DNA of 55,524 bases from Candidatus Liptonbacteria bacterium (GCA_016204335.1 JACQKU010000021.1:1-55524), one strand, 5' to 3'. Shown: positions 15,701 through 16,300, counted from the first letter of the stretch. Notes: generated by a model from the letters alone, not told the origin. Numbers and translations are program-made.

Positions 15701-16300
15701 TTACATTATAGATTGGGAATGCCGTTTTACAAAGGCGTTGTAATGAATCGGTCTCTTTACTTTGAGATACTCCACGATTTTACCGGCGGGTGCCGGAAAA
15801 AACCCCCATCGTTCCCTTAATTCGGAAACTCTTCCTGCGACTTTATCTAGGTTGGTTTTGTCGTCAGACATCAGTTCTATCTCTCCGATTTTGAAAATGA
15901 ACCCATCGTCGAACTTCGCATCATCAAGCACAATATTAAAATCGCCGTTTTTATATTTTCTCCGGGTTGTTTTACAAATACAAAATGAAGAGTAACCGGC
16001 ATTTTTCAAGTCGTCTTCAAATGAGCCGGTTTCGGGAACATTCAGCCGTTTTCTGATTTCTTCGGCAGTTTCTATTTCTTCATACCTGTCTACATCTTTA
16101 TTTTTTGTTTGATAGAAGGAAATTTTAAGTTCCCATTTGCCGTCGCGCGAACGGAGCCACATATCATTTCCGATAAGTCGGCAGTCCGACGTGTCGTAGT
16201 AAATATCGGTAAAAGTTTCCTCGCCTACGAATTTCGCATCTTCCCTTATACGCTGTTCATTTGTTTCGTTGAATACGAATTTTTGTTCAATTTCTATCAT
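15701..16300 (-). CDS. CYTH-domain protein (ThTPase/triphosphate tunnel metalloenzyme-like)
   Basis: N-terminal IEIEQKF (ExExK), then DIYYDT...[13 protein letters not shown], typical of CYTH. Sits 7 nt after atpG and 4 nt before atpD. Confidence 0.8.

Follow-up and report, generated by a model that had tools for sequence, protein, structure and literature searches.

Nearly all organisms contain thiamine triphosphate (ThTP), for which no role has been established; ATP synthase has been credited with making it, the only CYTH proteins so far known to have thiamine triphosphatase (ThTPase) activity are metazoan, and a specific bacterial ThTPase has yet to be described (PMC8615392). Here we analyze a 199-aa open reading frame (ORF) that lies between atpG and atpD, the genes for the F1 gamma and beta subunits, in 55,524 nt of DNA from a Candidatus Liptonbacteria bacterium (GCA_016204335.1 JACQKU010000021.1:1-55524); this whole stretch is called the window below. 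The ORF (15701-16300, minus strand) starts MIEIEQKF, contains the motif DIYYDT and interrupts a complete F-type ATP synthase operon, which runs on the minus strand in the order atpB-E-F-H-A-G-CYTH-D-C. The best reading is that it encodes an intact soluble triphosphate tunnel metalloenzyme (TTM) of about 23 kDa, belonging to a large Patescibacteria-wide CYTH family. We give a probability of about 0.5 to its being a free hydrolase whose operon position was inherited from one insertion at a permissive site, whatever the adaptive value of that position. A literature search found no paper linking CYTH proteins with Patescibacteria or with atp operons.

In ThTPase the thiamine pocket is built from Tyr-79 and Met-195, with Trp-53 stacking against the thiazole ring, and the phosphates are held by Arg-55, Arg-57 and Arg-125 (PMC4641920); the catalytic dyad consists of Tyr-39 and Lys-65 (PMC8615392). 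According to the signatures of Vogt et al., ThTPases (their cluster 8) have W/YxRxR where ordinary triphosphatases have a small residue at the first position, and class IV adenylate cyclases (AC-IV) have an HF motif before ExExK, have lost the first Arg, and have ExA in place of ExE (PMC8233210).

The ORF matches the CYTH profile PF01928 over residues 1-157 at 62.3 bits (gathering cut-off 23.2, E 6.7e-17) and has at least 74 full-length homologues, so it is not a chance ORF. The five best matches in a sequence search of the PDB were the mouse and human 25-kDa ThTPases, aligned end-to-end with E about 3e-11. A profile of 37 family members reached the mouse enzyme at 3e-31 (112 bits) and the human one at 6.5e-29; the next CYTH structure followed at 6e-11, the Sulfolobus triphosphatase SaTTM at 3e-9 and E. 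coli YgiF at 1.6e-3. The metazoan enzyme (THTPA), a possible orthologue, is the best PDB match by 20 orders of magnitude, yet its identity is only 25-28%. An AlphaFold2 model built on the family alignment (pLDDT 93, pTM 0.87) predicts a tunnel formed by a beta-barrel of eight strands, with a C-terminal plug helix, and a Foldseek search with this model placed 5a64_A, mouse ThTPase with ThTP, first (TM-score 0.85, root-mean-square deviation 2.5 Å); SaTTM, CyaB, YgiF and AtTTM3 reached TM-scores of 0.4-0.65.

Seventeen positions were mapped from the window protein to mouse ThTPase: E3 to E7, E5 to E9, K7 to K11, D32 to D37, Y34 to Y39, W48 to W53, R50 to R55, R52 to R57, K59 to K65, Y73 to Y79, E75 to E81, R113 to R125, D126 to D147, E140 to E157, E142 to E159, K174 to K193 and V176 to M195. 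In an alignment of 161 family sequences, 15 of the 17 are invariant or nearly so. Within the N-terminal ExExK (E3-I-E5-Q-K7), both glutamates are invariant and the lysine is kept in 158 sequences. The basic tunnel residues R50, R52, K59, R113 and K174 and the acidic pair E140-x-E142 are likewise invariant or nearly so, and Y34 and K59, equivalent to the Tyr39-Lys65 dyad, are conserved. The motif W48-L-R50-S-R52 has its tryptophan in 159 of the 161 sequences and tyrosine in the other 2; among 148 cluster representatives, 144 have W or Y here. Of the 161 sequences, 155 keep Y73 (including 6 of the 7 atp-embedded ones, described below), and position 176 is I, L, V or M in 141, hydrophobic throughout these, with V, I or L replacing the mouse Met.

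ExExK, DxY, WxRxR and ExE together, with no HF motif, make the protein one of ThTPase type by the rules of PMC8233210. As judged from the sequence, the assignment of the ORF as a CYTH/triphosphate-tunnel enzyme, and specifically as a putative ThTPase-like one, is strongly supported. A first-pass annotation of the window had recognized a CYTH gene with an N-terminal ExExK signature and a ThTPase-like middle, and Pfam (the lack of a CYTH HMM match being what it had named as refuting it), the PDB profile search, Foldseek and the intact motifs all agree with it, as do the structure prediction and the conservation of tunnel residues that it had proposed as checks. Its coordinates, both spacers and the quoted peptide motifs (IEIEQKF, DIYYDT) were all correct when we re-read the ORF.

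The gene arrangement is real: atpG-CYTH-atpD was found at 100% identity in three independently assembled sequencing runs (L083-L085), which excludes a chimeric contig. The same order occurs in seven lineages in all, namely the window and loci L081, L082, L166, L169, L001 and L107. Listed in that order, the gaps from atpG to CYTH are 7, 3, 15, 27, 20, 84 and 1 nt, and those from CYTH to atpD are 4, -4, -4, -4, 87, 57 and 934 nt, the last holding additional inserted genes. The CYTH stop codon in L081, L082 and L166 thus overlaps the atpD start as ATGA, an arrangement typical of translational coupling. No terminator-like sites were found at either CYTH junction of the window. Because the spacers are too short for a terminator, and because the ATGA overlap occurs in three related lineages, co-transcription and translational coupling, as the first-pass annotation had it, are reasonable; it is very likely, on sequence grounds, that CYTH is co-transcribed with the atp genes.

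Four of the embedded copies were added by two kinds of search. L081 (78% identity) and L082 (55%) were reached as the closest CYTH homologues, and L166 (AtpG 88% identical) and L169 (68%) via the closest AtpG homologues. In a neighbour-joining tree of the 161 family sequences the seven embedded copies form an exclusive clade, with bootstrap 63/100, marked by three derived characters: V124, a one-residue Gly insertion at 133, and Phe190. Position 124 (its codon lies at about 15929-15931) is Val in 7/7 embedded copies and Asp in 147/154 other family members, as it is in mouse ThTPase (D145). It is two residues before D126 on the same strand and, from the strand register, should face the tunnel, and the change D124V may have shifted the handling of metal or substrate in this clade. 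A single ancestral insertion is the simplest reading of an exclusive clade with common derived characters, and it is likely that one such insertion at the atpG-atpD junction was followed by the keeping of tight or overlapping junctions.

Comparison of the window with L081 gives dN (nonsynonymous divergence) 0.13 and dS (synonymous divergence) 1.17 for the CYTH gene; the dN/dS ratio of about 0.11 indicates a functional gene under purifying selection. Against L166 the window presents a different picture: the flanking atpG and atpD are 88% and 87% identical in amino acid sequence (dS 0.58 and 0.60), whereas the CYTH genes (L166 1381-1977) are only 49% identical, with synonymous sites saturated (proportion of synonymous differences, pS, 0.77; dN 0.41). 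This divergence points to a replaced cassette, recombined flanks or very rapid evolution.

The window's CYTH gene has a third-position GC content (GC3) of 0.415, fourth lowest of 61 ORFs (z about -1.9). CYTH GC3 falls below that of the flanking atp genes in six of the seven embedded loci, so low GC3 is a property of the gene rather than a trace of recent transfer, and a recent foreign insertion, as judged from composition, is rejected. Absence from all related atp operons together with foreign composition had been named beforehand as the mark of a random insertion; the gene is in fact present in six other related operons.

Elsewhere the family is common and keeps other company. An exhaustive profile search, with clusters at 50% identity, gave 474 clusters with E <= 1e-30 and 2307 with E <= 1e-3, and a scan of one genome per species found a relative in 159 genomes, nearly all labelled Patescibacteria or Parcubacteria-type candidate phyla. 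Locations were counted in 160 loci, the best 80 from genomes and the best 80 from metagenomes. Among the genome loci atpG-CYTH-atpD was found in L001 only, 78 had no atp gene within 4 kb, and in L048 the CYTH gene lies 2.5 kb downstream of atpC; L107 was the only CYTH gene in an atp operon among the metagenome loci. Thus 157 of the 160 have no atp gene within 3-4 kb. All-against-all clustering of the ORFs flanking the 80 genome loci gave no conserved neighbour, the largest cluster spanning just 8 loci. A Pfam scan of 128 immediate neighbours had as its most frequent domains Exo_endo_phos (6), Pribosyltran (5) and NUDIX (4), and found nothing related to thiamine, adenylate kinase or atp. Because atp genes are absent nearby and flanks are unconserved, we take the family to be ordinarily a free-standing gene. 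The survey of the atpG-atpD junction that had been suggested did, then, uncover seven CYTH-bearing lineages, but they make up one small clade only, and most loci of the family lie away from atp. A glutamate dehydrogenase gene (395 aa) runs into the start of the CYTH gene in L048 (2817-4591), with an ATGA overlap; this is a single case, and the ThTP review lists glutamate dehydrogenase among its keywords (PMC8615392).

What else occupies the junction was learned from operons reached through AtpG similarity, a sampling blind to CYTH. L167 and L168 (AtpG 72%) have no CYTH gene there; a split HindIII-like endonuclease and an N6/N4 methyltransferase stand between atpG and atpD (L167 5025-6762), and L167 has in addition a GIY-YIG gene between atpF and atpH (1394-1876). 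L170 (AtpG 64%) carries a PDDEXK_3 nuclease at the junction (1517-1903). In L107 a DUF3850 gene and a ParE toxin-antitoxin pair (3612-4400) come after the CYTH gene. A ParE toxin follows atpG in L173 and L174 (AtpG 59%; L173 2037-2303), and after it comes a 29-residue duplicate of the atpG 3' end (2519-2605) that resembles the scar of an integration event at the end of atpG. Only in L171 and L172 (AtpG 64%) is the order canonical, with the junction empty and a gap of 2 nt. The neighbour-joining tree of AtpG is star-like and resolves just one core group, consisting of the window, L166, L082 and L001, with L167 inside it; the simplest reading of L167 is that this operon, with its restriction-modification system, lost CYTH or had it replaced. 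Because the junction takes up selfish genes, its occupancy alone cannot be read as functional coupling. The CYTH gene itself gave no PADLOC or PHROGs match and no relative in a scan of viral contigs, and we reject its being an anti-phage defence gene or mobile-element cargo.

L173 and L174 have one further insertion. Between atpA and atpG there is a 195-aa CYTH protein of a different subfamily (L173 384-971; PF01928 E 7.7e-15), whose closest structure is SaTTM and which matches the window protein by BLASTP at E 0.14 only; L174 is a second sample with the same CYTH-atpG junction. This second subfamily, with the motifs ExExR, [F/Y/L]xRxR and ExE, is widespread in Patescibacteria (at least 674 matches), and of three close relatives examined none is in an atp operon. 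A back-of-envelope estimate, based on some nine kinds of insert seen in eleven operons and on CYTH genes making up about 0.1-0.2% of a genome's genes, makes it unlikely that random relocation would place two unrelated tunnel triphosphatases beside the gamma gene; the argument comes from one lineage, noticed after the fact. L131 (1373-2670) and L132 (258-1555) each have, directly upstream of a CYTH gene of the window's family, a second-subfamily gene whose product is 36% identical to the L173 protein, a tandem that hints at related roles.

We envisage the history and working of the gene as follows. One insertion into the atpG-atpD junction would have taken place in the ancestor of a small clade in which that junction repeatedly accepts genes. 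CYTH would thereafter share the atp mRNA and be translated serially with gamma and beta, and would be made whenever F1 is made. The product would be a free cytosolic Mg/Mn-dependent two-metal hydrolase acting on a small tunnel-bound triphosphate, from which it would remove the terminal phosphate; the head group of that triphosphate would stack on Trp48, the invariant tryptophan and the plug helix accommodating an aromatic one. ThTP is the best candidate for the substrate, at slightly less than even odds as far as motifs and fold can indicate, and inorganic triphosphate (PPPi) or a nucleotide-like or other organic triphosphate are possible fallbacks. Once inside an essential operon with tight coupling, an insert may simply be difficult to lose, and we weight a frozen accident at a permissive, hard-to-revert site somewhat above adaptation.

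Several observations weigh against this account. The rule leading from WxRxR to ThTPase was derived from animal enzymes only, and it is by this rule that the bacterial family would be assigned; the embedded clade, moreover, has replaced a near-invariant Asp, predicted to face the tunnel, and its activity or specificity may have shifted with D124V. As for the single insertion, the clade on which it depends has a bootstrap of just 63/100, CYTH-bearing operons do not all group together in the AtpG tree, and CYTH has diverged between the window and L166 far more than its flanks, so that replacement or recombination may be part of its history. Within the 3' end of CYTH, a promoter-like match could give atpD its own transcription start; the region has 17 such consensus matches where 7.3 are expected, and a consensus match is not evidence of function. 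The presence in L173 of an unrelated CYTH gene beside atpG suggests that more than accident is at work.

The alternative that survives best is that the wiring is adaptive, the gene encoding a dedicated (thiamine) triphosphatase whose co-expression with F1 was selected to clear ThTP or aberrant triphosphate made by the ATP synthase as a side product, one 'cleaner' being produced with each batch of F1. It would account for the ThTPase signature and the best structural match to mouse ThTPase; for an order that seven lineages have retained even where CYTH identity falls to 44%, with synonymous sites saturated and junctions compact or overlapping; and for the coincidence of clade-specific changes, the tunnel-facing D124V included, with embedding. 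It also draws on the second, SaTTM-like CYTH gene of L173 and L174, although that is a single lineage whose three close relatives lie elsewhere. The synthesis of ThTP by FoF1 ATP synthase in E. coli and brain mitochondria, to which the earlier annotation had appealed, is indeed in the literature (PMC8615392), but ThTP formation in Patescibacteria, and an ATP synthase running there in the synthesis direction, would have to be assumed. On the other side stand the 157 of 160 family loci that have no atp gene nearby and neither a conserved neighbour nor a thiamine theme; L167, which sits within the CYTH-bearing core of the AtpG tree and carries a restriction-modification system and no CYTH; the clean 2-nt junction of L171; and the uptake of selfish genes at this site, which deprives occupancy alone of functional meaning. 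We regard adaptive wiring as possible but doubtful. The functional link to ATP synthase that the first-pass annotation proposed is accordingly no more than plausible, and is the weaker for the junction's being a hot spot and for the free-standing position of nearly all family members.

That annotation had also offered the protein as a regulatory accessory subunit, one that would bind F1, for example at gamma, and sense or hydrolyse triphosphates to regulate the motor. We found no support for this and consider it very improbable. The gene does adjoin atpG both in the embedded clade and in L173, and an epsilon subunit of about 80 aa without the C-terminal inhibitory domain might leave a regulatory niche to be filled; but L171, with no embedded CYTH, has an equally short epsilon, the great majority of family members are encoded away from atp genes, and the complete catalytic set is retained just as it is in free enzymes. 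Only three positions discriminate the embedded clade, with no added segment beyond the single-residue insertion. An F1Fo subunit is expected to be encoded with atp genes across taxa, and only 2 of the 160 best-matching loci are embedded; to our knowledge no CYTH protein is an ATP-synthase subunit. Least probable of all, and rejected here, is a CyaB-type class IV adenylate cyclase making cyclic AMP, to which some homologues owe their JGI name ('adenylate cyclase class IV') and at which a weak match to NCBIfam TIGR00318 hints, since that match scores 42.3 against a cut-off of 57.95, the HF motif (four residues before ExExK) is impossible in a protein that starts two residues before ExExK, R50 (first Arg of xRxR) and E142 (second Glu of ExE) are kept, the opposite of the AC-IV signatures (PMC8233210), and AC-IV structures are far weaker matches by profile and by Foldseek.

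New here are the clade-restricted operon setting of a known enzyme superfamily and an undescribed bacterial family with a ThTPase signature. These address a long-standing niche question, which enzyme hydrolyses ThTP in bacteria and whether ThTP has a tie to ATP synthase. A widespread bacterial family with the full ThTPase signature is a directly testable candidate ThTPase, and the embedded clade is a natural experiment on whether ThTP hydrolysis and F1 expression are coupled. A bolder statement, that this would be the first prokaryotic ThTPase family, hard-wired between F1 gamma and beta in one clade of Patescibacteria, with an unrelated tunnel triphosphatase recruited beside gamma elsewhere, seems to us improbable; if it were true, triphosphate by-products of ATP synthase such as ThTP would be a real physiological load that cells police, and with these loci ThTP turnover in bacteria would for the first time be linked to the F-type ATPase by genomic evidence. 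Whatever the substrate, these reduced genomes have an insertion hot spot at the atpG-atpD junction, inside an essential operon; the restriction-modification, toxin-antitoxin and nuclease genes found there warn against inferring function from gene order in Patescibacteria.

The features of the operon are collected in Table 1. Of the epsilon subunit the window encodes just the N-terminal beta-sandwich and no C-terminal inhibitory helices; epsilon is equally short in L167, L171 and L173.

Table 1. ATP synthase operon of the window and the CYTH gene within it
Feature	Coordinates	Strand	Basis
atpC (F1 epsilon), 80 aa	14054..14296	-	PF02823 E 2.9e-20, residues 1-77
atpD (F1 beta), 467 aa	14293..15696	-	PF00006 E 8e-75, PF02874, PF22919
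4-nt spacer TAAC, CYTH stop (TAA) to atpD ATG	15697..15700	-	
CYTH / triphosphate-tunnel metalloenzyme gene, ThTPase-like, 199 aa	15701..16300	-	ORF, Pfam PF01928 E 6.7e-17
Promoter-like match TTGTAA-16-TATAAT, inside CYTH 3' end, just upstream of atpD	15705..15732	-	consensus match
7-nt spacer TTTTATC, atpG stop (TAA) to CYTH ATG	16301..16307	-	
atpG (F1 gamma), 323 aa	16308..17279	-	PF00231 E 1.4e-82
atpA (F1 alpha), 517 aa	17370..18923	-	ORF; tblastn 74-92% identity to atpA stretches of related operons
atpH (delta/OSCP), short form, 125 aa	19057..19434	-	PF00213 E 1e-11, profile positions 64-168 only
atpF (b subunit)	19431..19943	-	ORF; homologue in L167, L171 is PF00430
atpE (c subunit)	20036..20311	-	ORF; homologue in L167, L171 is PF00137
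atpB (a subunit)	20506..21282	-	ORF; homologue in L167, L171 is PF00119

Downstream of atpC, and before the Pro_CA_2 and tsaD genes, the window has an ORF of 189 aa (13447-14016, minus strand) with unusually high GC (0.58; GC3 0.66) and no Pfam, PADLOC or PHROGs match; in L167, Pro_CA_2 directly follows atpC. The valyl-tRNA synthetase of the window (8526-11441, minus strand, 971 aa) contains a complete histidine-phosphatase domain (His_Phos_1, PF00300, E 3e-52), inserted as residues 486-663 within the class I catalytic core.

Among described proteins the closest is the animal 25-kDa ThTPase (THTPA; PDB 5A64, 5A65, 3TVL, 3BHD and 2JMU), like this one a single-domain CYTH/TTM protein of about 200-230 aa. 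The two align over their full length and have in common ExExK, DxY, WxRxR, the plug-helix lysine (K193) and the other catalytic positions; the protein described here differs in its low identity to the animal enzyme, its bacterial host, its shorter loops and V, I or L for M195, and the embedded clade in addition by Val for D145. With the prokaryotic inorganic triphosphatases (NeuTTM, CthTTM, E. coli YgiF and Sulfolobus SaTTM) it shares the superfamily, the predicted tunnel fold and presumably two-metal hydrolysis. Those enzymes are usually encoded by stand-alone housekeeping genes; their clusters have a small residue where this family has its invariant tryptophan (PMC8233210), and they are weaker matches by profile and TM-score. 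CyaB and the other class IV adenylate cyclases have the CYTH domain in common with it, and some homologues in the family are so annotated. As for the operon, a gene for something other than a subunit is familiar in the form of atpI, which precedes atpB in many bacteria, and the F1 operon of Rhodopseudomonas blastica reportedly has an unidentified 'gene X' between gamma and beta, the very junction considered here. In both cases, the latter as reported, the extra frame is co-transcribed and is not a subunit of the purified enzyme, and neither, as far as we know, is a CYTH enzyme. Unlike such extras of the atpI type, the CYTH insert belongs to a clear enzyme family and has free-standing homologues in hundreds of genomes.

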